From Perna viridis (Eukaryota): 64,000 nt of DNA. Positions 368-64,000 of this stretch are shown in pieces. The DNA lies in assembly GCA_037379345.1 (NCBI GenBank), contig CM074518.1, positions 806,001-870,000 on the forward strand. Reading direction: 5' to 3'. The first letter of the stretch is position 1. The number at the start of each line of letters is the position of its first letter. A model generated the notes under the pieces. It had not been told where the DNA came from. It made no database searches and saw only the letters and a list, made by a program, of their open reading frames with translations. The position numbers and the translations under genes were made by a program.

Positions 368-653
368 TATATCACAACTCATACGTTATTCAACGGGTCA
401 TGTCATAGTTTTCCTGAGCAACTCGGCGGGTGTTTCTAGAAAAGCAGAGGACGCTTACCATACCGGTGCACCTGGTCCATGCTCCCAGTTTTTAGTGGAG
501 TCCGAGTTGCTCATTTACTTTTGTTACTTTGTATGTATGATTTTAGTTACTTTATGTTCTTTGTTGCGTATGTCTGTTTTCCATGTCTGGTCTTTGTCCC
601 TGGATTACATTCTTTTGGTTACCGCTATAACCTTGGTTCCCTTGATTACTCTT
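368..653 (+). mobile_element. Penelope-like element 3' fragment, copy 1 (internally deleted)
   Basis: Begins with ISQLIRYS (PLE RT C-terminal motif). Near-identical to 44900-45186 and to the reverse complement of 53713-54040, and shares the 3' end CCCTTGATTACTCTT. Confidence 0.7.
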
Positions 654-39200: not shown

Positions 39201-40987
39201 TATTTACAGATCCAAGCTAGAATATTATGAATGATTCTCTTAGAAACAATGACTAATTAATACTAGAAACAAAAATGCAAATACATGTACATCATTACTT
39301 ATATATGCTGAGAGATTACATACACATTATACTTAATTGAATAAATGTACATAATTGTAAACTTGAAATAACATGTACCACTAGTTAAGCATAATTTAAC
39401 TATGAGCATGTATATACAGATATAAGAATATTCCTCTATCTGTCAGATCTGAACATTTCTATTCCAAAGATTTGTATATTTGATCCCTTAATAGCTGAAT
39501 GAGTCTAATATATACAATACATGTAGGGGTTATACTGGCACATTGGAAATGGAAAAAAGTATCAGAATTTAAATAATTATTTAATTATAAAGACCATACA
39601 ATAAATGTTTATAGTGAAGACGATACAAAAATACTGAACATTGTATGGGAAGCTCCGAAAGACATTATTTCCTGTCAGACTGAAATCAGGCTCTCAGTGC
39701 TTCCATACTAGGACTTTATTTCACATTTAATACTGTTATAAAGACTATAAATAAAACAGCTACAACATGTAGGTCCTGGGTTAAACTGTATCAAAAGGTG
39801 AAGGACAAACATACACACAAATGTACAGACAGCAGCAAAACTTAATGTCTTCTGATGTGTTAAGATAGGGCAAGGGAAATACTGAAAACAAAAGTACTGA
39901 ACCATACAACAAATGTGATTTTATTTCATTCTTACCTTTTCAATTTTAGAGCCTCTATATTAGGTTTAGCTTTGGGAAATCTGGACCTAAATGGTAGTCG
40001 TTGTATTACAGAACTGGATTTGGACTCTGGTCCAGACCTTCCATCTATAGTGTCTGTCCCTATACTACCAGAGCGAAGTTCTGTGGATGAATGGACAACT
40101 TTGTTACTTTCTTCAGAAGATTGCTGCTTTTCTTTAACACTAGAGTATAAATCATTTATCTTTGTACTTCCTCCAAGAGGCTCTGCCACAAAAGATCTCA
40201 TTACTGGACTTTTGATCATAGTAACAGGTTTTGGACTAACCGTTGAATGCATGGTAGTGTCGGCTGGACTGTTGGCTCGAGGTCTTGATTGCTTCTTAGG
40301 ACTTTTGACCACAGATGGACCATTATCCCTAGGTCCAATATGTAAGGCCCTTTTACCAGGTGTAGGAACCATTGACTTAGGACTTTGTTCTTTAGACTGT
40401 AATGGAGACACACAAGAACTTTTGACTGACTGTAAGGGATCAGATCCACAGTTTTTAGTTGCAGTAGGACTCGTTAAGGGTGATGTAACCTTCAATGATG
40501 CTTTAGGAACATTACTGCTAAATCGTCTGGTGAAAGTCTTGCCTGCTTTTACAGATAGGCTTATAGCATCTTTCTTTGATTTTTCTTGAGTATCGTCCTT
40601 AGGTTTTTGCACTTTTTCATGTTGACTTCTATGGCTGTCATTTTTATCTTTTTCATCACTTTTGCTGGTAGGACTATCAAGACTGAGTCCAAATCTTTTT
40701 AATCTTGTAAATGGCTGATTACCACCAGTTTTTTTCACAGATCCTTTTTCTCCATTTTTAATTGTACCATGTTCCCTTTGATTATCAACCTGCACAGGAA
40801 AAGCCTTTACAGCCCCGAGTGCCTGCTCAGGGCTAATCCTTTCACTATTTTCCTGTTCATTCACGTTAGACCCTGGTTTCTGAGTCAAAGACAACTCATT
40901 AGTCCTTACAGTACCCTTTGTTCTATCTACATTGGATTTTCCACCAATGTTGGGTTTGATTTGCAACCTTGAACGACGTGTAGCCAT
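21260..40987 (-). CDS. BDP1: Transcription factor TFIIIB component B'' homolog (BDP1), 11 coding exons, about 956 aa
   Basis: Minus-strand exons: 40987-39936, 38795-38718, 37950-37776, 35610-35528, 35196-35005, 31377-31256, 31002-30908, 25547-25493, 23672-23508, 22873-22747, 21986-21260 (2871 nt, in frame, all GT-AG). N-terminus MATRRSRLQIKPNI. Conserved blocks: MTIGDLIYYNPVKNPM, VPQVKIGPDGSIIINEESL, and the SANT/Myb segment WSQWDTEKFYRALSYLGTDFSLMIKLFPNRTRYDIKTKFKRED. Low-complexity exons and the last exon are less certain. Confidence 0.92.
23295..23530. repeat. 33-bp x4 repeat duplicating a BDP1 exon end and donor, followed by a ~58-bp x2 repeat
   Basis: Minus-strand ACTAAGGTGGAATCAG|GT recurs at 23508, 23475, 23442 and 23409. 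Confidence 0.85.
24150..25453. repeat. 63-bp minisatellite, ~21 copies, BDP1 intron
   Basis: Unit AACTCCCTTGGACTAAGACCCCATTCTCTGYTAAAACTTCAGATTTAGACTCAATACTTTGTA. Confidence 0.95.
26445..27706. repeat. 58-bp minisatellite, ~22 copies, BDP1 intron
   Basis: Unit CAAAGTAAACCATTTACCTGAGCCACACTTCTGAATGGTCCCTTGGAGTCTGAACWAC. Confidence 0.95.
27707..28033 (-). repeat. Dispersed ~320 bp repeat, inverted relative of 4716-5022
   Basis: Ends GCAAAAAGAGGTCATGGAGAACGCTGG. Confidence 0.75.
28178..30711. mobile_element. Tc1/pogo-like non-autonomous element (TACTGTATTTTCT...AGAAAATAAGGTA) carrying a nested insertion
   Basis: Imperfect TIRs bounded by TA, with paired GACTTA subterminal motifs at both ends (28231-28256 and 30669-30693). 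Confidence 0.55.
28881..30495. mobile_element. Nested 1.6 kb TIR element
   Basis: TAAGGCCAACTTTTTTTTATAATCTGTTTTACGGGA (28881) is the inverted match of TCCCTTAAAACAGATTATAAAAAAATGTTGGCCTA (30461-30495). No intact ORF. Confidence 0.75.
30737..30922. repeat. 61-bp x3 tandem repeat overlapping the BDP1 SANT exon 3' end and donor
   Basis: TCTAAATAAAAGAG at 30737, 30798 and 30859. Confidence 0.9.
38521..38637. repeat. Imperfect ~40-bp inverted repeat (hairpin), probable element end
   Basis: ATTATTAAATATTTTTTCAAC..GGGAGTTTCTCGTGCT / AGCATGAGAAACTCCC..GTTGAAAAAATATTAAATAAT. Confidence 0.65.
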
Positions 40988-43900
40988 GTCTTCTATTTAC
41001 AAGCCTACAGTGGAAAAAAACATTAATATACATGTATAAATAAAAGCAACTAAGAGTTTACAAAAATTGCACATGACAAAAATCCCATTAGTCATACACA
41101 AAAATACACGTACATGTATGATAGAGTAACCCTGTAAACCCTAACAATGAATGATATATCATAACAAAACCAATCAGGTTAGTACATTTAACATGCAGAT
41201 CAGAATCAAACCAAAAATATTTGTAATATGTAGTCAAATGGTAATGATGAACTTAAGACTTAAATATTTTAATTCAATCAGGAAACATGAAGAATGTGCT
41301 GAAGATGATCTACCTACTACCAATGATATTTACTATAAAAATCCTCCCTACTATAGTAACATTGGGAAACAGTCAAAACAATTATGCCACCATGGGAGGC
41401 TTATTTTCCTTAGTGAAGTTTTAGATCTATAATCTGAGAGATTTGTTACTGTAGTGTTGACCAACCAATTCATTTGAAATCTAGAACCAGTTTAAGAATT
41501 TACCGCAAGATACTTGTTAATGTGTATTTTCTCCATTCTGAACTGAATGATACATGTACATGTACATTGTACATGTATTTGTAAATAACAATATTCTTTG
41601 AAACAACATTATTTTACTTATAATCTGTGTACCAACTGAAGTTTAAAAGTTGTATTTATTGAAATAAAAGTAGAAATGAAACATTCCTATGCAAATAATT
41701 ATGTGTCACCTGTTCAATGAGCATTACCCTTTATAACAAATCTTGTCTTAACCATGTGAAAAAGCAGAACTTCAAGGTTTTACATGTGGTCATTCATTTT
41801 ATGTACTTTGTCAGACAGTGAGACCAGGGAAGCAGAGAAACTACACATTGTTATCCAGTTACTTTTTTACAAGAGGCACCAAGGGACAGTGCTTAAGGAA
41901 GTACAACTGTAATTATGTATTCCTCCTCATGACTGATGCAGAATAAACTGCACATCTACATATGATACTTATATTTCCATTAAAATTTCACCGAATTCCT
42001 TTAAAACAATTTAGGGGCAGATGTGCTAACAAGGTTTGAATATGTTAAAGCCTTAAAATGGATTATCTCCCTTTGCAGCCCTATGACAGTAACTATATTC
42101 CTTCATGACATCTACATATGATGCCCAACCATTCTAAGACACTTCATCTTTTTTTCAGGAAGTCATAATGAAACCAGCACACACATTTAGGTGCAAAAAT
42201 ACATTCATGTATAAGTACATGGGTGAACTTCATTATTGACAGAAACCCCATTTACAGTTACCAAGTATATAATCTGGACTAATATTGGTCAAAACATGTG
42301 CATATAAATTGAAAAGTCCATTTTTCTTCATCCTGCTATTGTTACTATATTTAGACTCTGGGAATTTTCCTTTCTATTTTCTAATATTTAGATTGAAGAT
42401 CAGGATTGATATAGCAGTCGCGAGAGCAAATAGATTTGAAAAGCCTGTTAGCATCTTCCATTATCTCTTAAACCACCACAGGAAAAAATTCTGTTGGCAT
42501 ACCCTATTAAGGTTCAACTAGAGATTGTTACATGTATGTCCCCTTTATAGGTATTTCTAATATATCAAGTTTAATTCCATTTTATTTATGCCAATAAACA
42601 AACTGTACTGTGAACTATTCCCACCAAAACACTTCAGCATTTTATTAACAATTCAAACTGTTTTAGCAAGTATCAGATGGAATAAACAGTGTTTTGGGGA
42701 TTCTATATGTTACTTCATTAGGTAAATTGGTTTCTTATGTTGAATCTTTATTTAAATTTGCATTTAAAGCTATGTGCATTTGGCCAAGGTTGACTTACAA
42801 CGTACCTTTTACCAAAGTCACTGGCTCACTATAAATACTTTCGTCGGATTGACACTTCACTTAGAAATTAATTTGAGGGATACATGTAACTAATTTTAAA
42901 AGAATCTTAGCAGCAATGTCATAACTACATTGTATCTTCATATTGGCTTCAGTTGTAAATTTGTCATGATTAATAGGTTTATATAATCTGAGTCAGAAAT
43001 TGATGGGTTCCTCTGGCATTGTAAACAAGTAATGATAATTAAAAGTTAATTAATGCAGATGACAATTTAACCATGGCACTGATTTTTTTAACCATGGCAG
43101 CCATCAATGCTATAATAGCTTATGGAACACCCTGCTCTGGGAGCGTTTAAGATTTTACCTTCCTCATATTATTTACAATAACAAAATGTCAAAAAATAAA
43201 TTCAGTCTACACGAAACTTTTTTTTTTACTGGTCATTTGGACCTGTAAAGCTTACTGTTTTACTGGACCGCATGAAGTTTTTCTGGTCCAAAAAGACCTT
43301 TATTCATTTAAGTGAAAAGAAATTGGTTATTTCATGGTTACTGAATATTCTCCTTTCATAGTGTTTAAGGTTTTGTTCAAGCTCTTGTGGTGATTAGTAA
43401 AAATTGAAAAGATATATTCCAATATGTGTGTTTTACTTTTAAGCCTTTAACATGTACATTTTTTGTACTAGTTGTGTCTGTGATGTCCGATCATGAGATG
43501 AAGTTCCACAGAAAGTTTTTAGATGAACTGTTCTAGTCTATATGTAATGATTCATGAGGATGAGAGAAGGCACATATTCCAGTCTTTTAGCAAAACAAAT
43601 TTTCACTTGATTGCTGTTTTTTTCTGATTTTTCCACATTGATTGTTTTATCTAAAATAACTTTGAAATGTGCTGATTTATTTTTTGTTGAACGTCCGACA
43701 CGTTTTTCCTCATACTGTTTCTGCTTGTCAGTCAATTTTCTTTTAATCTTAACTAAATTTGCCGGGTACTGCACCTTCCGTATACCTTCCAAAGGACATT
43801 TTTCAAGTTTCGTACACGACCGGCCATTTGTATTTTTCAGGGGAAACAACCCGATGACGGATGTACAATAAAACTTGAACACGATGTCGAACTTTTGGTC

Positions 43901-44434
43901 TGGATATCGGAGCGATCTTTATCGAACCGGCAGCAATTTTATCGGATTTGACCGAAGGCCCGAAGAGTTTTGTATAGACTGAATTCATGAAATAAATTCA
44001 ATGTTTATTTTGAAATAATGCAAATCTTTGGCAAAATGAAGTATTTTGGAAAAGAAAACACAATACATATATACATATTTAGTCCCTGGTCATGATGGGG
44101 CTAGTTCTACAACATAATTTCGTAAACATACATGCAAACCAATATTGAAATAACATAAAATGTATAATATGCTGAGGGTTACCGACAGATGAAAGCTTGA
44201 GTAGTAAGCTTTGTAAGAATCATGCCAATTCTGTATGTGATACAACCCCAGAAAGGCTACCCATGTTTGTTACTTAGATGCTTTATAGGTCAATAATATT
44301 GACAATATGTATTATATGATGACATGGCCATTGCTTGTTTTGGGGATTATGTACACACATGTAAAATTAATTTATCTATCGCAGCTTTTCAACTCCTCCA
44401 TCCCTCTAGCTTGCGAAATAAAGCGATAAATCAC

Positions 44435-44510
44435 CTAAATTGACGATTTCTTTCTTGTTTGAAATGTGGCTTTTTCGTTTTTCATGCTAAGTTGCAACTT
44501 CCGGTTCATG
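44435..44510 (-). promoter_or_regulatory. Candidate BDP1 promoter and non-coding first exon (ETS-type CCGGAAGT motif; donor AG|GTGAT at 44435)
   Basis: The BDP1 ATG exon has an acceptor at 41004/41005, so an upstream UTR exon is needed. This CpG-enriched patch has ACTTCCGG at 44497-44504 and a minus-strand donor 60 nt downstream. Confidence 0.45.
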
Positions 44511-44629
44511 ATCAACCTATTACCGACGAGACAACTAAGAATAGCAACGGAACTTTTAACGTACAGAATCGTGATGGTCAGTCCAGAGATTTCTGAATGA
44601 CAAAGAAAAGGGATAAAGTCAAAACTTCC

Positions 44630-45186
44630 CTGATGACTTTTCATTCAAAATTGTCAACTTTCCTTTCATCTATGGCAACATCCCTTCAGCACCTGCATAT
44701 GGAGTGTTCATATGATGATCACAACAGAGCTTGCCGAAACTACGCAGGCTTTTTGTATCGCTAGAACTCTAACAAATAGGCTTCTGGAACAGGGTTATGT
44801 TGCTACAAGATTGAAGTCATCACTACGGAAGTTTTATGGTCGTCATCATGAACTCGTGGATCGTTGTGGTGTATACATCTGCACCATGAATCCAAACTGA
44901 TTTATTCAACAGGTCATAGTTTTCCTTTCCTCGTTTGTCTACCCCGGACTTGACTTTTTATGAGCAACTCGGCGGGTGTTTCTAGAAAAGCAGAGGACGC
45001 TTACCCTACCGGTGCACCTGGTCCATGCTTTCTGTTTTTAATGGAGTCCGAGTTGCTCATTTGCTTTTGTTACTTTGTATGTATGATTTTAGTTACTTTA
45101 TGTTCTTTGTTGTGTAAGTCTGGTCTTTGTCCCTGGATTGCATTCTTTTGATTACCGCTATAACCTTGGTTCCCTTGATTACTCTT
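44630..45186 (+). mobile_element. Penelope-like element (probably Naiad-type, RT at the C-terminus) 3' fragment, copy 2 (longest)
   Basis: DDFSFKIVNFPFIYGNIPSAPAYGVFI...LLEQGYVATRLKSSLRKFYGRHHELVDR is the PLE RT C-terminal region. It is followed by a structured 3' segment with no downstream GIY-YIG domain. Confidence 0.75.
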
Positions 45187-45479
45187 CCGAATATTTTCCA
45201 GAACTTTTTAGTGAATTTTTTTTAAATTATGTCTACGTAACATGCTGGTACTTATTTGGTCTTTTTTTAATTGAGCCATTAGGTTTGTGTTTTTTTAGCT
45301 GATTTTTGTTTTGGTTTCGTGCATGGTTTGCTCATTCCCTTACCCATTATGGCATATCATTTTACTCTCTTTTTGGTGTAATATAAAGTCCTTGCTATCA
45401 ATATACATTATATTGTAACCAAGAAAGGATTTTTATAGTAGAAATTGTAGAAGTCTTATGTATAAATATAATGCGTGGA

Positions 45480-45761
45480 GACATAGACCTGTAAATGACA
45501 GGTCTATGATGGACAGACGATAAGCAAAATTATCCATAGTCCACATTTATACTGAATTGCTTCAAGGAGTTATATGCTAGATATGTCCTTGATTGCTTTA
45601 AAATTAGAAATATAAGTCTCCAATAATGTTGAATATGACAGAAATATTAAACAATTATAATGTTACATCTTAAATTTATTATGTTTCACTGTAATGTATA
45701 TTTATTGTTATAATAGGCCATAATCATGCAAGGCCAATAAAGTATTTGTATTTGTATTTGT
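45480..45761 (+). mobile_element. Possible LINE 3' tail
   Basis: AATAAA followed by (GTATTT)3 at 45736-45761. Confidence 0.35.
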
Positions 45762-46267
45762 CAACTATAAAAAAAAATCCTTGACCTTGATAGTGAGAAC
45801 AAAATAGGTGTGATGGTGCTGCACAGTTTATCACACAGGGCAGGGAGTCCGGGTGGATCCAGGATTTTAGATTATGCGGGGGCGCACTGTTTAAAAAAAG
45901 TAAAATGAACTTGCGTAGTAATCATTAGCATGTCAGCCATTTTTTTTCAAGCCCAACGGCATTTTTACTAGCCATGGCTGTCGGGCTGGTGGTCAGTTTC
46001 GAGGACCATATAATGTCCAGACCACAGGTGTCAAGTCACAGATTTCTACATACATCTCAATAAAAAGCCTAGCCTAGTCAAGCATGATACAGCCACAGCC
46101 CTTTCAACCCTGTACTTGGAGACCACATGTTTGACACATCCTTAAAGTGGTAAATTGTGTAAGCGTATTTGACAAATAAACTGTTTTGGATAATCCATTG
46201 GTAATACATTGTTTGATTTAGATCACCCAGAATTAACCCATTCAAAATAAATAAATAAATAAATAGT

Positions 46268-46501
46268 CAGGCGCGTAGCTGAGGCCAAATTGAAGTGTAG
46301 GCAAAATTACGGCAGGGGGTCTGGGGCCGCTTAAGGCCCCCAGCAGGTCCAGGGCGAAGCCCCTTTCCCGAAGCTCCGCGGAGATAGCGTTTTAGAGCAT
46401 CATTTATGCCTCTCCTGGATGTATTTTATCTCCAAAAAAAAAAAAATGGCAAAATTACGTGTAGGCAAAAGTTTTTTTGCCTAACGGCAGCTACGCGCCT
46501 G
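46268..46501. mobile_element. 234-bp MITE with perfect 14-bp TIRs and 5-bp TSD
   Basis: CAGGCGCGTAGCTG...CAGCTACGCGCCTG, flanked by ATAGT at 46263-46267 and 46502-46506. Confidence 0.85.
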
Positions 46502-49500
46502 ATAGTGTACAGGTGTATGAACAACTTTGGACCTTTTTATCTCTGATATTGTTAAAGATATAGCAAATTTTGTTGGCACACTCCTATAAAAAACATTAAA
46601 AAAATGAAAACTAGGGTCTGTCAAAAAATGATGTTTTGGCCTTATTGACCTCTTATAATTAAAAAAAAAACAGGTAGAAATGTTTCAAATTGAAAATAAA
46701 GGTAGACATTCCCATGAGGAATCAAATGAACAAAATAATTCAACACACATTAGACCAGAAATAATTAAGTTGATTTGACCCCATATAAGTAACAAAGCAG
46801 TAAGAGAAATATGAAATCTGATTTAAAAAAATACAGGCAGATATTTCCATTAATTTAGAATCAAATGATTTTTTAGGAGTAGTAAATAACAAAGTTGATT
46901 TTTAGGGTCTCAATGTCGGCTCCTATTAAACTGAAAATGTTAGCTCCTATTAACCTGAAAATGTTGAACTCTATTTACAGTCTATTCAATGCCTGGTTAA
47001 CAGAATTTTAATTTTTAAAAAAATACTGTGAAAACTGAAGAAGAAATAAGCCTTTCTCTACATCAGTTTTGAATGAATACCTATTTTACCCCTTATGGCT
47101 GCCTTTTTGAGAAGCTAAGTTTTGACCAGGGACCACATTTCCAATAGCTAGCCTCATAAAGCAGCAAGTAACAATATATCCAAACTTCATGACATTTGGT
47201 TCACTGCAACTCAAGTTATTGTGGAAATAACAAAAATTACAACATCATAACATTATATATGACTGTGGTCGTTTAAAATCTTTGAAGGCCAAATAAAATC
47301 ATAAAATTATACCTGTCTCCTGTTAAATGTTTTTTGCCAGAAAAAAAAAATGGGTCGGAAGGTTGGGATTTTATTTTATTTTATTTTATCATTTTTAAAG
47401 AAACAACTGAAAAAAATCTTATTAATCACCTGGACTTTGTGGAAACAAAGAAATTGACTACCATGCATCTATAAAATGTTGGGTCGTTTGTAAAGTTAAA
47501 AATAAGTCAGTCGGAGGGTCAAGGCATGCATCGGTCGGGTAAGAGGAAACAGAGACATTATTATAATTCCAATACCCCCTCCCCCACAAAAAAAGTTTGT
47601 CTGTCTGTCCGTCTGGTCCACATTTCTTGTAAGCGCAACTCCTCCCATTTTGATGAAATTTGTGTAGGAGGTTTGAGTACCATTTATAGATGTGCATGAA
47701 AGAATATAATTACTGTTGGCAGATGCCAAAATGAGATAATCCAACAAGTGTTTTTCATGTAAGTCCATTTGAAGAGGGGATATTCTCTTTGTGAGCTTCC
47801 TCACATTATTTCTAGTTTTACTTGGCCTGAGACACACTGGGAAATAAATGTGACCTGCCAAAGTCTGTTTTAGGTCATAATTGTGTGACTTTTACTGGAG
47901 TTTTGAAAGGTCACAGATATTTGATTTTCAATACCGGTAAATGTTTTTTTTAATATGGATACTCCTTATGAGAGGCACAATGTAGTACTTTTGAAAAGCA
48001 AAAAAAAAAATAATTTTTTGTGTTTTTCTGTTGTGACCAGCTAGAGAGAAACTTTCGGTTGTTGAAATGATTCTAATGACATGACTTACAAAAGTTCTCA
48101 TAGGGTCCAAATCATGTGAAGACTCCTTATTTGAGTTATGGACCTTGAAAGGCCAAAATGACAGATTTTGTGCTTAAAGCGTATAAATAACTTGAAAACT
48201 ACAAGACAGAAAGAAACTTTCAGTTGATCAAATGATTCTGATGATAAGGTCTACATTAGTCCTTTAATGTACAGATTTTATGATAAATCGCCAAAAATGA
48301 CTTTTTTAAAGACTTTTAGCTTATCATTGGAAACTTGATTTTATGATCCTTATTTCAAGACCTACAAAATAAAAAAAATAAGAGATGTAGTATGACTGCC
48401 AACGAGGTAGTCATCCACCAAATACCAAGTAATAAATAAACTGATTCATTTATTACAGTGTAACCACATGCGAAACATGAAAAATATACAATTATAATAA
48501 CAATTAAAATTACAAGTGCCATTCTGTAAAGAATAATGACAGACTTAAGATTTATAAGAATATATACAATTATCACAATGAAAACAAATTTTGCTATGGA
48601 ATTACTCCATCAAAAAGGATGTGTGGAACAGATATTGGTGGAAAATGTCAGAACATATATTGATAGTAAATGTCGGAACAGAAATTGGTGGAAAATGTCG
48701 GAACAGATATTGATGGGCAATTTCGGAACAAATTGTTTTCACACATCAGTTTTATGACATTTGAAAAATTAATGTGAGTAATTCGGTTTTTTTTTTTGCG
48801 TAGATTAGCCTCGGACACTGACAACGTTTCTTTGCAAGATGACATTAGTCCGAGTATCCTCTGATCCTGAAACTCTTCTTTTCTTCTTGGATATTAATAT
48901 ATATCCACAAATAAGTATCAAAATAAAAACTACGGGGGTAGCAGGGTCTGAGGAAATTCGGACTAAGGTAACTATATGAAGTATTTGATACATAGAAAAT
49001 ATTCATGACTTAAAGAACGAATTAAGGTAACGGAAATAACACAAAGAACAACAAATAAGACATATTAATCCTCAGAAAGTGTTGACCAGTTGCATTGATA
49101 GGATAATTTTGACTTCAATCAAAACAGAAAATATGGACCTACGGAAGCCCGTTAGTACCACGTGGAGCTCTTTTTTTATCTTGTTATAACAACTAAACTA
49201 AATAGTTATATCAACTTAGCTAAGGTATATAGGGTCAAAGATTTGTTTAAATTTAGTAGAACAGCTTGATTATTTAGTTAAAATGTCTTTGATTGATATA
49301 ACAACTGAGGAACAGTGTTAATTGTATTTTAATTCATGTTGAACTGCTTTAAATTTTGATTTAGTTGAACTGCCTTTGATAAGAAACAATGAGGTAGAAA
49401 GTAAATTTCAAGTTGGTAAAACTGAATTTGTTGAAAAAAATATGGAGAGGCAAAGTTAATTGTGATTAAGTTGAAAGTTCTACAATTAGTAGAAATTTAA

Positions 49501-49544
49501 ATAAAGATTGCTTGAAGAGCACTACAAGAACCTTGGGTTGTTGT

Positions 49545-50347
49545 TGTCAGAAGACCCCTTATAGGGGTTTTGGCCCTTTTAAGGCCAAAAATAGCATTTT
49601 TTTTCATGTTTTGCCCTATAGAATGAAAACCATTGCAGATAGAGAGAAGCTGTTGCATGCTTAAATGTTCAGTTCAATGAGCTCTACAAAAATTCCATAA
49701 GGTCAAAGTCGTGAGATGTACCCTTTTAGGGGTTATGGCCCTCTAAAGGACAAATTGGTGTTTTTGCCATATAGAATGACAACTATTGCAGATAGAGAGA
49801 AGCAGTTGCTTGCTTGAATGTTCAGATCAATTGGCTCTACAAAAATGTCCATTGGTTCAAAAGTATCAGATTAACCCTTTAAGGGGTTATGGTCCTTTAA
49901 AGGCGAAAAATCATATTTTTGCCCACTAGAATGAAAACTATTGCAGATAGAGAGAAGCTGTTGCTTGCTGAAATGGTCAATTCAATAAGCTTTACAAAAG
50001 TGCCATTGAGTCGAGGTCATCAGAGGAACCCTTTTAAGAGTTATGGCCCTTTCAAGGTAAAACAATTGTTTGATGACACCTTGTAGGTACTAAGGACCTT
50101 TAAAAGTAATTTATGCACTTTTTTAATTTTTTTGCCCCCCCCCCCCCCAAAAAAAAAAACAAACAAACAAACAAACAAACAAACAAAAAACAAAACAAAA
50201 AAAACGTTTGCAGGTACAGCAATTCTTTTGCTTGCTTCAGAACATTGAACTCAACTAAAATTTTCAATATTGTTATACAACCCTTGGTGGTGGCTGAGTA
50301 TCATTTGAGTACCAGGTGAGCGATTTAGGCTCATATGAGCCTCTAGT
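49545..50347 (-). mobile_element. HINE-like element with ~153-bp internal tandem repeats, nested in the IS3EU-like transposon
   Basis: Three GAATGAAAAC..TTGCAGATAGAGAGAAGC units (49621, 49772, 49929). The end CAGGTGAGCGATTTAGGCTCATATGAGCCTCTAGT resembles the 9360-9393 and 19944-19980 terminus. Confidence 0.6.
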
Positions 50348-51888
50348 AGAAGATACGTTTGATAGATCTTCGCGAGCTTTTAAGGTGCGTCTTTCTCATG
50401 TCAATGAGATATGGAATAAGTTTACGTGACACTATTTTCACAAACCAGCAACAATTTGAAATCCTCTACGGAAGACAGCAAGCAGCCCTCAACATAGACC
50501 TTAGGCGCTGTCTGCCATCTTGCTGTTAGCTTCAGGACGAACAAAATACATATTCACAGAAGTCAGATGGTGTTGCGAACTCTGTTCATAATATAAATTA
50601 AAATGGGCAGTTGTAGAAATTTGTTGTACTTTTGTTTACTTTCATCACTTTGCCTGGAAACTGTTGCTAAAAGCCTGAAGTTTGATTTTAACTACTATTG
50701 TTGAAAGTGAAAGTAGCTGTACCAGATTTCGAAAGTACTCGGGCACTCTTTTATTATAATACATTAACTCTTATGTTATGTGTTTCGATTTTTGCCTTTT
50801 AACTTTGTGGCGTACTGGGCTTTTATTATATCACTATACCAAAGCCAGGTGCTGGCAAGTCCTAATTCCGTATTTGGAAAAAAACGGAAAGCTGTGATTG
50901 GGTTCCGGCCAGTCTTTTCCTTCGTTTGTCTTCATAAAGCTATGGAAAGCTTCATATTTTGGCATACTAAGAAATACAGTCCTTACCAAATATCTTTTCT
51001 AATACTAGTATAAGAATAACTGTTTTAAAAATGCTCTGCGGTATACGTTTAAATGCTAGGTTCAAAAGCGCCATTGTGTCTTTACTAACGAACAGGTGAT
51101 CGACATTATGTACACACATTGACAAGTCTAGCAAAATTAAAAACATCCACGAAATTTCTCCAAAATTAAAAGCAATGTGCAATGATACATAATACATCAT
51201 GTATTTTCTCTGTTTTTTTTTTTTTGCTCATGAAACAAGTCAAAATCTGCAGTTTTTCTGTTGACTAACATAAGTAACATAAGACGGTGACTTGCATGCG
51301 ATAGAAACATGCCAAACTGTAAAAAAATCAGTAGCTTTATGATGACAAACAAAGGCAAAAACTGACAAAACCGAAGATTCCATTTTTTCCCCAAACCCTG
51401 GATACTAAAAGTTAAGTTTTTTTCCGTAAGCAGCCATCAATAGCGATGTGCAAACTGCATAAAACTATATAAATGCTATAGTTAGATACATATTTTCGCA
51501 TAGGCGATACATACAAATCAACTTTGGCGACAAAAAATATATAAAAGTCATGTGGAAAATCTCATTTTTGCCGGATTCGCAGATCAGGATGTTGGATGTT
51601 GTAAAGTTTCAAAATGTTCGAAACTTTTCTTATTTTCATATTTTTGTACTTTTTTTACCTTTAAAGGTGTAACTTGCAATAAAAATATCTTATCTTCTGT
51701 TTATATCTTAGAAAGAAAAAAATATGTAAACGCAGATAATAAACATTGTAGTCTTTTTTTTATTTCTTGCGGGGAATTTTTAGTTGATTTGTTTCGTATT
51801 TTTTTCTGTTTTTCCCAATTTTTTTTCTACACTCGATAACAAAGCTGTACACCAGGCCTTTCAATCATTGTATTTAATATCGTGTCAA

Positions 51889-53569
51889 CTATAAATCAAT
51901 ATACAGTTGATGTCGAATATCAATATACAGTTCAACTGCATCATCTGTAGTTTGAGGGAATCCTTTATTTAATTCTTCCACATATATCATAAAAAGTTCA
52001 TAAAAATCTTCTTCTCGTGGTAATTGTCCCCGAAATGTGCATTCTTCTCTACAGGCTTCGATGTAAACAGACTGGACGTGGTTCAAATAGCTTCTGGTAC
52101 CATACAAGTGAGGAAGTACATACATGACACTTGGTTTACCATCAGGACAGTTCTGATTTTTAGTTGGTCTGATATTATGCGAATTCCATTCAATAACCAT
52201 GCGGTTAATATCTTTCTGAAACAAGATTACAATGTGATAACAATATAATTACTGTCTATTTTCAAATTGTACACATGCCTTTTACATATAACTGTAGGTT
52301 TTAATGATTTTTTTCTGATTTTGAGTTATATAAAGATCCGATTTAAAAAAAAACGCACCTCAATGCTTTAGCAGGTTTACACAATAAAATTCGTCTTTAA
52401 AGTTATTTAAAGGTGAAAGAGGGGGTTTCTAATGCTTTTAGGCTATTTGAACTGAATGTTGAGTTTTGATATTGTCTAATTGTGTGAAACGATTTCAATT
52501 GTACTACGCGAAAATGGTGCTCAGTAACTGTCGCATTGTGTCGAGGTATCGAGGAACGGAATGTCAACATCAAACATTGTTGGTAACCATAACGCATGCT
52601 TAAGCTTTTTTTAAAGATAAGCAAATCCAAACATGACGAGGAACTATCATGCGCACATGTCTGTTCAGTAGATGAAAAGGATAAGATGTACGAAATAACT
52701 TTTAGAAGTTTTGACAATAGCTTAGTATAGGGTGAAAGCCGTGTAATAACAGTAAATTTATAGTTACCTGAATCAAACGAAGAAAACAGATCTGCATCAG
52801 ATTTTTGTCGACATGGTTCCCAATAAACTGCCCATTATCGAGAAGGGCTGAAAGAACATCTATCCAGAACTGTGAGCATTGCCCTGGGAAAAAACTCCAT
52901 AGCATTTCAATACGCTGATTTCCCGTACTTTTACCATATATAAAACTCTCTTCGCGATTGGTTAGAAATTCTTGCATTATGCAATATGTCCGTTTTCAGT
53001 ACCCATATCTCCTCTTACACGATGTGGACAACCACCTCTTTTGCTTACTTCAATGAAGTACCCTGCGACTACTTTTGGGTCACTGCTGGTTTAATTTGCA
53101 CATAGCCATATTATGTTTCTGGAAAACCCGTCAATACATCCATTTATGCAGATACCAAATTTCTTAAGCTTGTCATATGAATCTACATGCCATAAAAAGT
53201 CTGGACCAAATGCAAAGTACTTTCGTCTACGGAGGCGGAGTTTTAATCGAAACTCGATGCCCTTTTTGTCCAAAATTTGCATTAAAATACTCACAGCCAC
53301 CCTTGAGACACATATTCCATGTGAATACATCTTAAATGCATTGCGCGATATCTTAGTTGACTACCACCATCTAGTTGTCCTTGGATAAATTCAGCTACTT
53401 CGAAAATATCATTTCGAAATTTGCGTCTGAATAAGCTCTCTTTTCTGAATATTCTCTTCAATGTTGTCATACTTATAGTAATATGATGATGTTGTGCTAA
53501 AAACTCTAATATTTCAGAATATCTAAATCCAAAGTCAAAATAAAAGCGGCATATCCTTTCTCGGTCCAT
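51889..53569 (-). pseudogene. Disrupted two-exon IS3/IS481-like (integrase core) DDE transposase
   Basis: Exon 53569-52768, GT-AG intron 52767-52216, exon 52215-51889. Motifs GPDFLWHVDSYDKLK..IDGFSR, RGDMGTEN, NQRIEMLW, EWNSHNIR. Frameshifts near 53325 and 52980 and an in-frame TAA at 53091. Confidence 0.85.
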
Positions 53570-53622
53570 ATTTAATGCAATTGTTTAGGGATGTGGCCGT
53601 TTAAATCGTTTATATACATGTA

Positions 53623-53712
53623 CTAAGTTGATATAACAAGTTAGCTAAGTTGATATAACAAGATAGCTAAGTTGATATAACAAGTTAGGTAAGTTGATAT
53701 GACAAGTTAGTT
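53623..53712. repeat. 22-bp subterminal tandem repeat of the IS3EU-like element
   Basis: (CTAAGTTGATATAACAAGTTAG) x4; related inverted motifs at 49180-49223. Confidence 0.8.
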
Positions 53713-54040
53713 AAGAGTAATCAAGGGAACCAAGGTCATAGCGGTAATCAAAAGAATGTAATCCAGGGACAATGACCAGACATGGAAAATAGACACACAC
53801 AACAAAGAACATAAAGCAACTAAAATCATACATACAAAGTAACAAAAGTAAATGAGCAACTCGCACTCCACTAAAAACTGGGAGCATGGACCAGGTGCAC
53901 CGGTAGGGCAAGCGTCCTCCGCCTTTCTAGAAACACCCGCCGAGTTGCTCATAAAAAGTCAAGTCCGGGATAGACAAACGAGAAAGGGAAAATTATGACC
54001 CGTTGAATAAATCAGTTTTCATGGTGCTGATGGATACACC
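53713..54040 (-). mobile_element. Penelope-like element 3' fragment, copy 3, inserted in the transposon's subterminal repeats
   Basis: Reverse complement of about 44868-45186. ORF 53707-53952 is nearly identical to the peptides of copies 1 and 2. Confidence 0.75.
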
Positions 54041-54105
54041 ATAAGTCAAGTTGTTATAACAAGATAAAAAAAAGAGCTTCACATGGTACTAACGGGCTTC
54101 CGTCG

Positions 54106-54340
54106 TATGGACCAGGTGCATTGGTAAGGAAACTTCACCCAGACAATATGAATCCGGTAGGATAACTCCACCAAAACATCTTATCTACCTAAGTGTATGC
54201 ATTGGCAATGTAACTCCACCAAAACATCTACCTAAATGTATGCACTTTTAGGGTAATTCCACCAAAACATCTTATCTACCTAAGTGTATGCACTGGTAGG
54301 GTAACTCCACCAAAACATAAACATCTACCTAAGTGTATGG
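54106..54340. repeat. Degenerate ~50-bp tandem repeat related to the 52-bp satellite
   Basis: ATGCACTGGTAGGGTAACTCCACCAAAACAT-like units. Confidence 0.7.
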
Positions 54341-56029
54341 CAAGCCGTTCTCATATTTATTCCATATTTAAGAAATCTCATAAAATATATCAGACATCTT
54401 ATATGTTGTATAAGATATCTCATTTCCCTATTTTAGCTTTTTTTTCTTGCTTTAATAGAAGGAATGAATCCATATTAAAAGAAACGCAACACAAAATGAA
54501 TACTATTTTCATTAATCTCATAAACTGAAATAATTCTATTTCATCAAAACAGTTGGGTCTCTGTAACCCTGAATGAAACATAAAACAAAAATCACGTTAT
54601 AACACTAAGACCACATTTAATCGCTCACTTAACTGATCTGAAGTTGATCTGAAAAAATCTGAATAGATTAAGAAGAAATTTACCAAAGATCTTTATCCAA
54701 TTGATATTCAAATTTTAATAAGCATACTATTACCATTGTTAAGATAAATTCAGATGATGATTCACCTTTCAAACGGCGAAACTGCTAAGAATAATTTGTA
54801 CAAGGAACCATCCAATGTCTTTTCCACCGGGTTCTGCAAATTGGGAAATGTCATTTCTACTGTAGAAACAATAGATGCGGTTTCGATAAATTCATTATCT
54901 TTGTTATATTATGATATTGGTTTTGATACTGTGAAATGTATTTATCGGAATCGCATCTATTGATCCTATTGTAAACATGACCTCGTCGATTCGCACAATG
55001 TGAACACGGAGTTTGACGGCAACGAATTACAAGGTCCAGTCAAAAGTGAGTTTTTTTTTTGTTTACACTGCATCAACCGATTTTTCACAATCCTTTTTCT
55101 ATTTAATACAGATTTATTTTGACCGCTTGGGGGGAAAGGGAAAAGGGGATGGGGTGTCTTGCGTTTGGGACTCGGCTGTACAGACCCTGAGAAAAAAAGA
55201 AAAGAAAAAGAGAGATATACCTAAAAACAACGCTTTAAACATTTTAAAGTTTATTTCCATGGACGTTTTTACTGTTTATGTAACATTTTGATAATTACTT
55301 TTGTCACGTGAATTACCTATAAGTTGGTATTAATATGTATGTAGTTTTTTTAACTCCATACTCGACTTTTTCAACACATATTCACGATTTTGATTGTTTA
55401 CAATAGTCGTTTATAGTTTACAGAGGTGTGTTTTTTCGACGCAGCCGCAATAGCGAATAACGTCTATATACTATATTAGATATCTTATATAGTATATGAG
55501 ATATCTTATATAATATATAAGATATCTTAATTATTATATCAAGATATCTCCTTTCGTTTCGTATTTCAGTTGAAATCTTCAAGAAAATTATTTTGGTATA
55601 ACAAACTTTTTTTTCGCATGATTTATAGCCATGTTCTATCAAGTTCAAGGTCAATCCCGGCATTATTTACTTTATTTACACTATGATACTTTTAATTGAA
55701 AGAAATCGCTTAAGTGTGAATTGTTTTTTGACGGGACCCTTTTGTGTCGGTGAGCTGCACAATTGTTGCTGTACTATTATAAAATAAATTATACTCACGT
55801 GCAATATGACGACAGAACATGTCATGCTCACCCTTCCGGAGTACCTGGTGTCACTCCAGGATTTTTGTGGGAGCTTTATGTTTTTGTTTGTTTGTTTTTT
55901 CTTAATTTCATTTGTATTTTCCTTGGCTTGCTTTTGTGTATTGTGTATGTAGATTGTCTGTTTTCACGTTCAGGCCATGTTTTGATATTTTGAATTATCC
56001 CACTGCCGATGCTTTTATTTTGCTGATAT

Positions 56030-57065
56030 TTATGGACCAGGTGCATCTGTAATGTTAACTCTGAGACAGTATGGACCATGGGCACTGGTAGGGTAACTCT
56101 GGTTATGTTCAAAACCGTGTGGATTAGGTGCTTAAGTAAGGTATAACTCGCTCAAAACAGAATGGGTAAGGTGCATAGGTAGGGTAACTGACTTTGACAC
56201 CAAAACAGTTAGCATGAACCAGGTGCACTCGGGTAAGGTAACTCTGACTCCAACCCAAATATATAGTATTGGCCAGGTTCACCAGTAAGGTATCTCTGAC
56301 TCCATTCAAAACAAATAGTATGGACCAGGAGCATGGGCAATGAAATTCTGACCTCACCAAAACAGATAGTTTGGACCAGGTACATTTGGTAGAGTAACCC
56401 CAATAAACACATAGTATTGACCAGATGTATTGGTAGGGTAACTCTGACTCTATCCAAAACAGATAGTATTGACCAGATATATTGGTAGGGTAACTCTGAC
56501 TCTATCCAAAACAGATAGTATTGACCAGATGTATTGGTAGGGTAACTCTGACTCTATCCAAAACAGATAGTATTGACCAGATGTATTGGTAGGGTAACTC
56601 TGACTCTATCCAAAACAGATAGTATTGACCAGATGTATTGGTAGGGTATCTCTGACTCTATCCAAAACAGATAGTATTGACCAGATGTATTGGTAGGGTA
56701 TCTCTGACTCTATCCAAAACAGATAGTATTGACCAGATGTATTGGTAGGGTAACTCTGACTCTATCCAAAACAGATAGTATTGACCAGATGTATTGGTAG
56801 GGTAACTCTGGCTCTATCCAAAACAGATAGTATTGACCAGATGTATTGGTAGGGTAACTCTGACTCTATCCAAAACAGATAGTATTGACCAGATGTATTG
56901 GTAGGGTAACTCTGACTCTATCCAAAACAGATAGTATGGATCAGTTGAATTTGGTAAAGTATCACAGACTTCAATAAAACTGATGATATGGACCATGTGC
57001 ATTGGTAGGGTTACCCTGACATCCCCCAAAACGGAAAATGTTGACCTGATGAATAGGTAGGGTGA
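56030..57065. repeat. 52-bp satellite array (homogeneous core 56410-56935, diverged flanks) derived from the PLE 3' domain
   Basis: Unit TGGTAGGGTAACTCTGACTCTATCCAAAACAGATAGTATTGACCAGATGTAT. The reverse complement aligns without gaps to 45001-45052 (41/52). Confidence 0.9.
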
Positions 57066-57157
57066 GTTTCCAGTGTAATTTGGAACCACATGTCTATCTT
57101 TCAACAAACTAAGAGACCTAACATACAATGAAAAAAGTTAGAAACTGATATTTAAAT

Positions 57158-57163
57158 TTTATT
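57158..57163 (-). terminator. Candidate polyA signal of the RIPOR-like gene
   Basis: AATAAA on the - strand at the end of an AT-rich stretch about 780 nt past the stop codon. Confidence 0.4.
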
Positions 57164-57942
57164 CCATTATCATATATATTCAATATATATAATATTGTAA
57201 CATAATTAATATAAAGACTTTGACTAGACTATATAATAGTAAATAATATTTACCGGTAATTATTTTATTTACAATGTAATAATCTCAAAGGTTTTGACTA
57301 AAAAGCAGCAATGTAACTTACAACTGACAAAACAAGTATTACATAAATATTGTAACCTGAAAATATAGCAGGATAAAACATTTAAAGATGGATGGTTATT
57401 TTTTTCTTAAGTTAAAAAATATGCTGAAAAAAATTAAAGAGATCAAAGGCAACTAACATAAAAAGTCTGATAGAAAGTTGTCAGTTTAATTCGAATAATC
57501 AGTTAATCTCTCATAGTGGTCGGTTCCAGCACTTACTGAGAAGTTGTCATTTATTCTCTCTTAGTAATTACTGAAAAATTGTCAGTTCTAGTAATTCCTG
57601 GCAAGTTGTCAGTTCTAGTACTTACTGAGAAGTTGTCGATTAATCTCAAAGTAATTACCGTTTTAAACAACTTCATTGGGCAGTAGAATGAACTTTGGAA
57701 ATACATTAAAAGTTTGTTAATAACTGTATGTAATCTAAAAGGAAAGGAGTTCTCTGTGTTTTCCATTGTATCACTTTACATTGATTCAGATTAAATAAGG
57801 ATCAAATGTGCTTCTTAAATCATATAATAAAGTATTGTAAATGAAGAGAAGATCATACAACATTATTTCCCGTTTTCTCCACAGTTTAACATCTGTTACT
57901 ATGGTAGCTTCACTCTGTTACTATCATAACAACTCTACTGTC

Positions 57943-60900
57943 CTATTTTTTCACCTGAAAGCCTTGAAATCCATGTGTAGTCAGCTGTGATTCATCAAAA
58001 GCATGTCTCCCCTCCTCCCCTGAAAAAAAAAATAATTCAGTATACATCAAACCTAAATAACTTTATTTAGAATAAAACTAAGAATATAATAATTATGGAC
58101 TGACAGTTGGTTGTTTTAATAATACATACTCTAAAATATGAAAATGAATCTAAAAAAATCTATAAATGATTTACTACTAGTGGAATCTTTTCTGATATTT
58201 CATGCACAAAAAAATTACACAGATTTTGCATTTGTATTATAAGCATTGTTTCCTGTATGTTATCTCCCCCAGTGACATTTGGAGAAGAAAAAAAAAGCCA
58301 AACCGTAAACAATTGTCTGTTGTTATAATGGAGATTGGTGATACTATTTGCACTGAGCAAAGTCACATTTAAGACATTTCCAAGGAAGAATCATGAAATT
58401 CATTGAAAACATAAAAACCAGGAGGGATTTGGGAAGATTACTGATGTATATAGATTAGTACATAGCTTTTCAAATATTGCCATGTAATCAGCTCTAAATT
58501 GATATCTATCATCTGAATAAAGCCTTGATCCAATATCATGGTCTACGGATGATATAAGGGCAATTGTAAAAAGGCCATGTATCAATTTGGAATTAAAACA
58601 GTACCCCTTTTTGGAATTTAAAGCAATATTCCTTCCTTGATACATGTTTATAATCCTTATAGACATTAACAAATGTACACCAATCTATCAATAGTTACCA
58701 TGGTTACTTACCAAGTGATAGTAATGCTGCTTTAGCTTGCCCCTGAATACCAGATGACGGATCAGTTTGACAAATGTACACAAATCTATCAATAGTTATC
58801 ATGGTTACTTACCAAGTGATATTAATGCTGCTTTAGCTTGCCCCTGAATACCAGATGACGGATCAGTTTGACAAATGTACACCAATCTATCAATAGTTAC
58901 CATGGTTACTTACCAAGTGATAGTAATGCTGCTTTAGCTTGTTCCTGAACACCAGATGACGGATCAGTTTGACAAATGTACACCAATCTATCAATACTTT
59001 CTGTCGCCTAAAAGTTAGAAATACATACATGATGAGGTGGATATAAGATCAGTGTCCAACTTCATAAAACATCTCAAATTAAGATTTTCCTCAAATCCTT
59101 TCTCAACCCAAATTTCAACCTGTCAGATCATTGAAATTGAAGATTTGAGGAAAAACACAGGAATTGAGGAAATTCACAACTTGAAATATTTTTATGAAAC
59201 CCAGGCCAGGTCAACAAGCATGCACTCTTTCCCTACACAATAAGGTTTTAATAATTGATACCAATACTTGGTGCACCATGGTTTCAGGAATTTGTTTATG
59301 CCCCCACCACTGTTAGGGCATACAGGTTTACCCTTGTCCATCATTTTGTCGTTCCATTAGTTTATAAATGCCTTTTTATTTGAAATATTCCTAAATCCAT
59401 CCATATTATTGATATTTCAAGTATGTTGTTTATCTTCAGTATTGGATCAAGGTTATGCCAACTGTACTTTCTTGGGTCGTATACTGTACTTGGGTTGTAC
59501 AATGTATTCTTTCCTTTTACTGGTGTACAGTTATTGTCTCTGTTCTGAACATATAAACTCTACATCAATAAAAATAGTAACAAAATTGCTTTTTAAAATT
59601 TAAACACTGTATTATGCTCATCATTATTTGAAACCATGAAAATTGATTTCCACAACTGTACTGACTTGACAGAAACCTGGAAAAATGAGTATGTTGACAG
59701 TATGGTAATTAACATACCTCTAAAATCTGGAGAGCTTTACAAGAGCCAGCTCTTATATCTGAAGTTTTATCTTCTAATCCTTCAGCGAAAACAATCAGTG
59801 CCTGTAAAATAAAGTGGTTGCATACTCAAAAAGAAGGGTTTACAGGGGGTTCAAATTTACTTTCAATAGTGATATGTCCTACACTATTTTGGCATCTAAA
59901 ATAAAAGGTTCCCAAAAAAAAAAGTGAAAAGTCCGCAACCAGAGTTAACATAAATATGGTAGATTCAGGTTCTAGGTAAATAATATTACAAAGGTTCTGC
60001 ATGAGAAATTTTGGATTCCAGACTTAAGACCAGTGCTGATCTGAACCCCCTGAGAGATAACTCTATGTGCGGATTTTATGTTGAGTTAGAAATCTTTTTT
60101 CATGCAAGCCCAAAACTAATTTATTCAGCAAATTAAAATTAAGGGCCAAGTAAAACAAGGCAAGAAAATTTTGGGGATAGAATTTTGTGAACAATCAGGT
60201 TTTATAAAAATTTTTTTTCCAAATTTTAGGGAATGGTTGGCCCCATGCAAGCATTTCCTTGGATCTGAGCCTGATATTGGAATATTAAGGCACATGATTA
60301 AAAAGCCTACACATCTATGATTGCTATGACTACTATTTCCAGGGTTTAAGTATAATATAATACCTGGTCTCTTCTGTCCTTGTTCTTTTTAATTTTTCTC
60401 AAGTAAGATTCTGAAATAGAAATAATGTAGCATCATAACTGGTTTATTATTCTCCTAAACATATTTAGAGAATGTAGCAGTACAGTAATGGAAGGGCAAT
60501 AACTCTGTCACCTAGCATCTATACAAATGTACATACTCATAGTAATTTTCAATAACTGCAAATTAAGATAAAATAAAATAGATATCTCAAACCAAAAAAA
60601 GTTTAGAAAGGTAAAAAATTCATGAATAAATCAAGTCCATGGCTATAATGTCAATAAAATGCTCTTTACAATGCAGTTTGATACAAGTACAGAGGTTAGA
60701 TATATCTATTAAATTCTGAATAAAGTGATTAAATAATAGGCATAGCATTTAAGTTAAGCATTGGACAACAAGTGTTTGATTGCTTACCAACATACTCGGC
60801 CACCTCAGCGTCAGGTCCTATAAGGAGAACGCCAAGTATTTTGACGCACAGAGTTTGTGGTAGCTCTTCCTTTAGGGTTAGAATGGTCTTTATTACACTG

Positions 60901-62769: not shown

Positions 62770-64000
62770 AGTTAATAAACAGCAGCAACCATTAGTACAT
62801 GACACACCCATCCCCAAGAAGGAAGGAATGATCAGTTAATAAACAGCTGTGCCATTAGCACATGATACACCCATCCCAAAGAAGGAAGGGGTGATCAGTT
62901 AATAAACAGCTGTGCCATTAGCACATGTTACACCCATCCCCTGGAAGGAAGGAATGATCAGTTAATAAACAGCTGTGCCATTAGCACATGATACATCCAT
63001 CCTGAAGAAGGAAGGGGTGATCAGTTAATAAACAGCTGTGCCATTAGCACATGTTACACCCATCCCCTGGAAGGAAGGAATGATCAGTTAATAAACAGCT
63101 GTGCCATTAGCACATGATACACCCATTCCCCAAAAAGGCAGGAATGATCAGTTAATAAACAGCTGTGCCATTAGTACATGATACACCCATCCCCTGGAAG
63201 GAAGGAATGATCAGTTAATAAACAGCTGTGCCCTTAGTACATGATACACCCATCCTCATAAAGGAAGGAATGATCAGTTAATAAACAGCTGTGCCATTAG
63301 CACATGATACACCCATCCCAAAGAAGGAAGGGGTGATCAGTTAATAAACAGCTGTGCCATTAGCACATGTTACACCCATCCCCTGGAAGGAAGGAATGAT
63401 CAGTTAATAAACAGCTGTGCCATTAGCACATGATACACCCATCCTGAAGAAGGAAGGGGTGATCAGTTAATAAACAGCTGTGCCATTAGCACATGTTACA
63501 CCCATCCCCTGGAAGGAAGGAATGATCAGTTAATAAACAGCTGTGCCATTAGCACATGATACACCCATTCCCCAAAAAGGCAGGAATGATCAGTTAATAA
63601 ACAGCTGTGCCATTAGTACATGATACACCCATCCCCTGGAAGGAAGGAATGATCAGTTAATAAACAGCTGTGCCATTAGCACATGATACACCCATCCTGA
63701 AGAAGGAAGGGGTGATCAGTTAATAAACAGCTGTGCCATTAGCACATGTTACACCCATCCCCTGGAAGGAAGGAATGATCAGTTAATAAACAGCTGTGCC
63801 ATTAGCACATGATACACCCATTCCCCAAAAAGGCAGGAATGATCAGTTAATAAACAGCTGTGCCATTAGTACATGATACACCCATCCCCTGGAAGGAAGG
63901 AATGATCAGTTAATAAACAGCTGTGCCATTAGCACATAATACACCCATTCCCCAAAAAGGCAGGAATGATCAGTTAATAAACAGCTGTGCCATTAGTACA
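62770..64000. repeat. 63-bp minisatellite (RIPOR intron), runs off the window
   Basis: Unit AGTTAATAAACAGCTGTGCCATTAGCACATGATACACCCATCCC...GAAGGAAGG..TGATC, about 19 copies. Confidence 0.95.

Follow-up and report, generated by a model that had tools for sequence, protein, structure and literature searches.

Telomerase adds its repeats from a fixed template register, with a boundary helix and a conserved product. For minisatellites the first duplication has been described as largely unexplained, and in the excerpted text of Ahmed and Liang (2012; PMC3389668), where initiation during retrotransposition was already proposed, the known models cover 6% of the human TE-derived cases; excerpts of a review (PMC6947457) cite Haber and Louis 1998 and Jurka and Gentles 2006 on TE-derived minisatellites. 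At the 5' junctions of R1 and R2 (PMC2718515) and of an R2 transgene insertion (PMC11371274), the available passages describe microhomologies of 1-5 nt, extra bases and short duplications, and also template jumps and re-priming. The diagnostics of Naiad elements given by Craig et al. (2021; PMC8557442) are an N-terminal GIY-YIG domain, a CxC motif and a DKA that replaces DKG, and in the accessible portion of that paper these elements are described as having no canonical hammerhead. The literature searched, which included parts of the reviews PMC11136912 and PMC12628747 and left most subscription papers outside, yielded no account of minisatellites derived from the UTR of a Naiad.

Here we describe a 52-bp tandem array in a 64,000-nt stretch of the Perna viridis genome (C8:806001-870000), which we call the window. 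Positions in the element are given relative to window position 45001 (rel 0), and the element 3' end lies at about +198. TRF reported the array at 56232-57063 with 16.2 copies; its parts are listed in Table 1. An initial annotation had aligned the main minus-strand unit without gaps to 45001-45052, with 41 of 52 bases identical, and we obtained the same score, while the best of 200 shuffled units compared with the plus strand of 1-49000 reached 30/52. Against a typical copy of the family the unit scores 38/52, so three of the 41 matches come from changes that only the 45001 copy has. Among the rotations of the unit, register 45001 has one of the best scores. Both scores lie far above those of the shuffled units, which bears out the proposed origin of the unit from the 3'-UTR core of a Penelope-like element (PLE). 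Judged by its sequence, the array is a TE-derived minisatellite with a unit derived from the 3' UTR of a Penelope-like retrotransposon of the Naiad clade: the unit is homologous to part of a TE, and the units resemble their neighbours more than they do copies elsewhere. When four central units served as the DNA query, which gives a lower bound, no locus with these units came up beyond the array's own. The roughly 1.4 kb of units, for which the searches (lower bounds) gave no second locus, do not resemble the long, abundant arrays at several loci of a classical satellite.

Two motifs quoted earlier from the flanking degenerate units are present (56218-56228 and 56032-56045, the second one base off). 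These units had been considered locally closer to the PLE than the central ones. They do keep the element base at several sites that are changed centrally, which sets the direction as element to array, but overall they reach a mean of only 64%, against 73% for the central block. No element homology was found upstream of the first array unit (57065), where 473 of 1000 shuffles reached the score; the T-rich stretch after the last unit is weakly similar to the element 3' tail, 27 of 1000 shuffles reaching the tail score.

Table 1. Features of the array and its source element, and results of the genome-wide census by anchor (window positions unless rel or a chromosome is given; the Naiad assignment is that argued in the text)
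Feature	Position	Strand	Remarks
Main array block	56026..57065	-	about 21 units, element-sense orientation; degenerate units included
Central homogeneous block	56442..56909	-	9 units, 98.4% alike, 73% to family
Second array block	54105..54340	-	includes derived 48-bp sub-array 54156-54339 and half-unit cut by insertion
Third array block	49060..49139	-	other half of cut unit and last, partial unit
Inverted-repeat insertion splitting array	49140..54104		about 4.96 kb; TIRs; 9-bp flanking duplication, 8/9 matching
Segment homologous to repeat unit	45001..45052	+	TT dinucleotide after both start and end, a 2-nt microhomology
Predicted structured 3'-UTR domain	44960..45060	+	closed by 13-bp helix, 44960-44972 with 45048-45060
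5'-truncated young copy, Naiad family	44630..45190	+	RT C-terminus, stop 44917-44919, 3' UTR
Truncated copy of same family	53713..54044	-	nested in inverted-repeat insertion
Third truncated copy of family in window	409..653	+
Loci with 5'-most piece starting downstream of next unit's start	C2:69.76, C4:30.55, C12:30.27, C14:15.26, C6:10.31, C14:11.78		six loci
Anchor	rel -184		4 element-derived loci; all other places dropped
Anchor	rel -89		0 element-derived loci; 4/4 places dropped
Anchor	rel -33		1 element-derived locus
Anchor	rel 0		at least 7 origins, among 14 places listed
Anchor	rel +14		19 of 22 places element-derived; 3 dropped
Anchor	rel +51		10 of 11 places element-derived; 1 dropped
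Anchor	rel +141		25 of 29 places element-derived; 4 left out (1 unrelated, 3 not inspected)

The window also contains four other minisatellites (15038-17366, 24148-25472, 26445-27708 and 62770-64000, with units of 53, 63, 58 and 63 bp and 20-44 copies), two broken LINE-type reverse transcriptase regions (788-1723 and 6169-7828, minus strand) and long host-gene exons at 39932-40996 and 21260-22168 (minus strand). We take the N-terminus of the product of this gene to be reminiscent of BDP1; an Atlas search gave nothing clear.

Units near 49 kb and 54 kb (49073-49139 and 54105-54340) had been listed as separate occurrences, but they belong to the same array, which is interrupted by an inverted-repeat insertion. 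The half-units 54132-54105 and 49139-49107 join to form one complete unit across an insertion with a 9-bp flanking duplication, and the three blocks are one interrupted array. Block 54105-54340 also has array-specific bases in common with the main block. The TIRs of the insertion (49141-49194 and 54049-54103) show 94.5% identity. The insertion carries 22-bp subterminal repeats. It also contains a broken frame, 51892-52248 (minus strand), that gave no Pfam match; 16% of the proteins like this frame carry the integrase core PF24764 (Atlas score 0.97, with recognition under the threshold). Between the second and main blocks lies another probable inverted-repeat insertion, 54341-55550, whose arms (54353-54423 and 55475-55545, 76%) contain 21-bp repeats. 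The plus-strand stretch 55825-55900, which adjoins the array, resembles the same core in a sister family, and at C13:8.92 Mb a core like this one is repeated as three units of 50 bp.

The 19-base motif at the 3' end of the element has 20,035 exact matches in the genome. The copies share a fixed 3' end and their 5' truncation points are scattered. RT frames were obtained from six long copies, which share up to about 3 kb; the CSC motif is present in all six and PADKA in five, the remaining one having PADKV. In the longest copy a GIY-YIG domain with an IYx11YVG motif was found upstream of the RT frames (Pfam E 8.7e-4, below the curated cut-off); the other five long copies are truncated and do not contain it. 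Because GIY-YIG lies upstream of an RT with the CxC and DKA motifs, the family is assigned to the Naiad clade of PLEs by the diagnostics of Craig et al. (2021). A search of Rfam over 43000-58000 gave no match except one sub-threshold miRNA, and the CUGA (hammerhead) core was absent from the sense UTR of the one copy inspected.

The initial annotation regarded the unit as an RNA segment bounded by structure. A helix is predicted between rel -41..-29 and +47..+59 (pair probabilities 0.83-1.0), starting about 40 nt past the stop codon and closing a domain of 100 nt. There is no known RNA family for this domain in Rfam. No compensatory changes were seen in the closing helix in an 86-copy sample (52-54 copies per pair), a result that is uninformative in so young a family. 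The end of the unit, at +51, does fall inside the 3' strand of the helix (45048-45060), though not at the strand edge, and since it lies mid-helix the unit does not appear to be structure-bounded. In the likeliest predicted fold, no helix edge coincides with the start of the unit; an alternative hairpin ending near the start appears in the predicted fold of one copy. There was no pile-up of 5' truncations at the unit start: of the 91 rows sampled, 6 begin no more than 10 nt from rel 0. A self-cleavage or RT-stop site there was rejected because 5' ends do not accumulate at this point. The decamer at the unit start, earlier called template-like, contains neither a CCCTAA nor a TAACCC word.

Arrays derived from the element were sought in the whole P. 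viridis genome using seven element decamers (anchors) repeated at 35-65 nt, or at 46-60 nt for anchor 0. This gave at least 66 element-derived tandem loci, their units ranging from 27 to 64 bp; the count for anchor 0 leaves out five places that match the element at the anchor alone and one uncertain place. Independent arrays thus exist, and the 52-nt register was found at three loci. Besides the window array these are C3:18.25 Mb, where the same junction joins two units, 32 nt into a truncated copy, and C3:59.2 Mb, a large 52-bp array from a more distant relative that occurs in two copies with the same flanks. The two copies have 27 units (C3:59.219-59.221 Mb) and well over 100 units (C3:59.290-59.298 Mb). 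A junction search with 2 mismatches gave no further 52-register arrays; C12:1.95 Mb, despite its match to the junction pattern, was discarded as a single copy with mutated upstream bases. The initial annotation had expected identical unit boundaries from array to array and had named random boundaries as the outcome that would speak against it. Boundaries differ from the 52-nt register at 63 of the at least 66 loci, so that outcome was largely observed.

The commonest unit is 53 bp long (rel 102-154, nine loci), has a 6-nt microhomology and lies outside the helix domain. Other recurrent units are 59 bp, at the element 3' end (five loci), 31 bp (four), 41 bp (three) and 30 bp (three). These recurrent boundaries are real, and they follow microhomology more than structure. 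Two of the five 59-bp loci, C14:34.34 and C10:5.75 Mb, were not accepted as true arrays; they look like nested insertions, and their units differ in subfamily bases. In both, a 4-nt word common to the two parts marks the join between a young-type 3' end and a terminal 59 nt of older type, and they are likely self-insertions of the element into its own UTR. The unlinked truncated copies at C4:30.55 and C13:22.51 Mb have the same 38-nt duplication and the same short junction filler. Upstream of about rel -12 arrays are scarce, with one at -33 and none at -89 against 19 at +14. Of 86 copies, 26-28 have the upstream anchors intact, compared with 41 at the core, and microhomology is equally common upstream. 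Because arrays are scarce there and microhomology is no scarcer, plain slippage alone does not explain the distribution.

Six array-wide states, at unit positions 11, 26, 30, 32, 38 and 48, are present in the window array, its degenerate units included. Counting the central block once, they occur in 12/16, 15/17, 14/16, 13/15, 10/11 and 10/12 units, respectively, and in 1/60, 1/65, 0/67, 5/67, 0/67 and 0/69 family copies. In a sample of 146 element cores the six are never found together, and no core has more than two. Because the shared states are absent together from the sampled copies, the array appears to have grown at the DNA level from a unit that had already drifted. We consider it very likely that growth proceeded by ordinary DNA-level slippage or unequal exchange; in this respect the simpler alternative already named in the initial annotation explains how the array grew. 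A diverged sister family with the six states could be missing from the sample, which was gathered by likeness to the young family. The 45001 copy was rejected as the donor (the unit scores 38/52 against a typical copy, and the 45001 copy has two of the six array states) and is a relative of it. Self-identity is 98.4% in the central block and 61% among the degenerate units. The sequences indicate that a unit which had drifted further was amplified in one or more later rounds, and the central block, 56442-56909, is the latest expansion of the array.

A similar pattern was looked for in 28 arrays. In 14 of them, a variant rare in a 30-copy sample was common to at least 80% of the units, which indicates duplication after the copy had begun to mutate; two of these 14 rest on sites that are variable in a larger sample, and one is likely a nested insertion. 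Thirteen arrays had no variant common to most units, and one more was unscorable. All three 41-nt arrays are among the thirteen, with 3-5 units and private changes in most units, as synthesis at insertion predicts, and this counts against DNA-level growth.

The position of the arrays within the insertions was scored with a scripted rule that asked whether element sequence was present 45-165 nt upstream of the first anchor. Arrays lay at the insertion 5' end in 15 of 19 cases for anchor +14 (controls, 7/39; p = 2e-5), 7 of 10 for anchor +51 (8/49; p = 0.0015) and 7 of 25 for anchor +141 (5/52; p = 0.049), the controls having been picked by the exact 3' motif and being on average younger than some arrays. 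Five of the 91 control rows were dropped as duplicated twins. Eight of the 5'-end arrays have bodies 91-100% like the family, so decay does not account for these eight. At six loci (Table 1), in-place duplication cannot make the 5'-most piece without further deletion, and the first duplication was therefore likely coupled to insertion. Such pieces can arise from RT re-annealing on RNA, from repeated second-strand priming by the RT or a host polymerase, or from truncation inside an array of the source copy. The impression that many 5'-end arrays contain flanking DNA was abandoned on re-reading, most such bases being readable as altered element sequence. Insertion-linked seeding, which favours the initial proposal in part, is thus likely for many core arrays (15/19 against 7/39 for anchor +14), but structure-bounded, telomerase-like iteration of the window array is not. 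The window array also scores as 5'-end, and its lack of upstream element homology may be due to decay. Because this array is old, we lean only slightly towards an insertion-coupled seed in its own case.

In the stricter form of the initial proposal, the Naiad RT would have written many units at insertion by recopying from +51 to 0 in a telomerase-like manner, later turnover having erased the traces. The recurrence of one register at three loci would agree with this, as would the strong 5'-end enrichment, the six 5'-most pieces impossible by in-place duplication, and the 41-nt arrays, in which as many as four junctions are identical and no private variant runs through the array. One fixed template register is nevertheless not seen, the boundaries being different at 63 loci; the end of the unit lies mid-helix and the start is off the helix edge in the likeliest fold, truncations do not gather at this start, and the homology available for realignment is only 2 nt. 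The six derived states common to the units are not faithful to a template RNA, the supposed template decamer is devoid of both words sought, and a short array at C5:21.01 seems to use flanking-DNA homology that is absent from the RNA. Iterative synthesis of a structure-bounded segment by a TERT-related RT thus did not hold up against the varied boundaries, the scattered truncations and the shared drifted states, and we consider it highly improbable. A weaker version, in which the Naiad RT re-anneals through 2-4 bases at insertion 5' ends and recopies 27-64 nt, sometimes in several rounds, with the seeds (that of the window array included) later growing at the DNA level, seems rather unlikely; several rounds are proposed for the 41-nt arrays, in which three or four junctions are identical. 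If this version were true, a Penelope-like RT would be adding internal repeats in vivo.

Chance slippage of the Haber-Louis type at the TT microhomology, wholly after insertion and unlinked to integration, differs from the best explanation in the seed step only. More than 20,000 copies offer many chances for it, most 53-bp arrays are internal and have private variants, upstream of the C3:59.2 array a decamer weakly like the element is present at the spacing that would be expected, and the window itself holds four unrelated 53-63-bp arrays of 20-44 copies. The enrichment of core arrays at 5' ends argues against it, and the 2 nt available here are below the 5-10 nt of that model (PMC6947457, as excerpted), so that we regard it as distinctly unlikely. 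An active source copy might instead have already carried the tandem in its UTR and spread it by retrotransposition, with the same boundaries in different flanks, a route described for LTR12 in the accessible part of PMC3389668. The matching junctions and filler at C4:30.55 and C13:22.51 are in line with this, and partial first units would result if a truncation fell within such an array. Only three loci have the 52 register, however, and their units are very unlike each other; the search with four central units matched its own locus alone (a lower bound), and unit numbers range from 2 to over 80. We give this route very little credence.

The reading that we prefer, and consider probable, is a single duplication across the 2-base microhomology at the 5' end of a truncated insertion, followed by growth at the DNA level. 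An old Naiad copy would have been truncated near rel 0, and 0..51 would have been duplicated once across the TT microhomology, probably during joining of the insertion to the chromosome. The polymerase might have been the RT, re-annealing on its own RNA, or host repair synthesis, two possibilities that the sequence cannot separate. Stepwise growth in place by slippage or unequal exchange would then have led to about 25 units, after which the array would have been split by insertions and one variant would have undergone a late burst. In itself the array is an ordinary member of the TE-derived minisatellites; the useful part is the family-wide pattern, in which a controlled count ties many seeds to the insertion 5' junction. 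If the RT and not a host repair polymerase makes these seeds, the Naiad RT would become a testable model for the origin of repeat addition in the sister group of telomerase.

Compared with the Naiads of PMC8557442, as far as the excerpted text goes, the P. viridis family is alike in GIY-YIG, CxC, DKA, heavy 5' truncation, very high copy number and partial tandems; the published elements have partial tandems and 30-40-bp tails, whereas here there are internal minisatellites of 27-64 bp. The likeness to telomerase and to the concatemer synthesis of DRT2 (PMC12039810, in part) is that a related RT could reuse a short stretch of RNA. Here, in contrast, there is neither a fixed register nor a conserved product, the likeliest fold places no boundary helix at the unit start, and the units were diversified and homogenised at the DNA level. 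The satellite-like arrays borne by oyster Helentrons (PMC7492417, in part) are similar as short dispersed arrays in a repeat-rich invertebrate genome, but they travel inside a DNA element, while the present array is locus-specific and derived from a retroelement. The TPRT 5' junctions of R1 and R2, in the passages available from PMC2718515 and PMC11371274, share with the Naiad case short microhomologies, duplications, template jumps and re-priming; R1 and R2 show target duplications, snap-back and jumps to the 3' end of another RNA, whereas here direct repeats of an internal segment grow into arrays. For the 5-10-bp direct repeats of the Haber-Louis model, the values here are 2 nt for the 52-bp unit, which falls short of the model, and 6 nt for the 53-bp unit. 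With respect to the TE-derived minisatellites from Alu, B1 and LTR sequences in the excerpts of PMC3389668 and PMC6947457, the present case differs in having a Naiad PLE as the source, with a microhomology of only 2 nt, and in that the enrichment at 5' truncation junctions was measured against controls.
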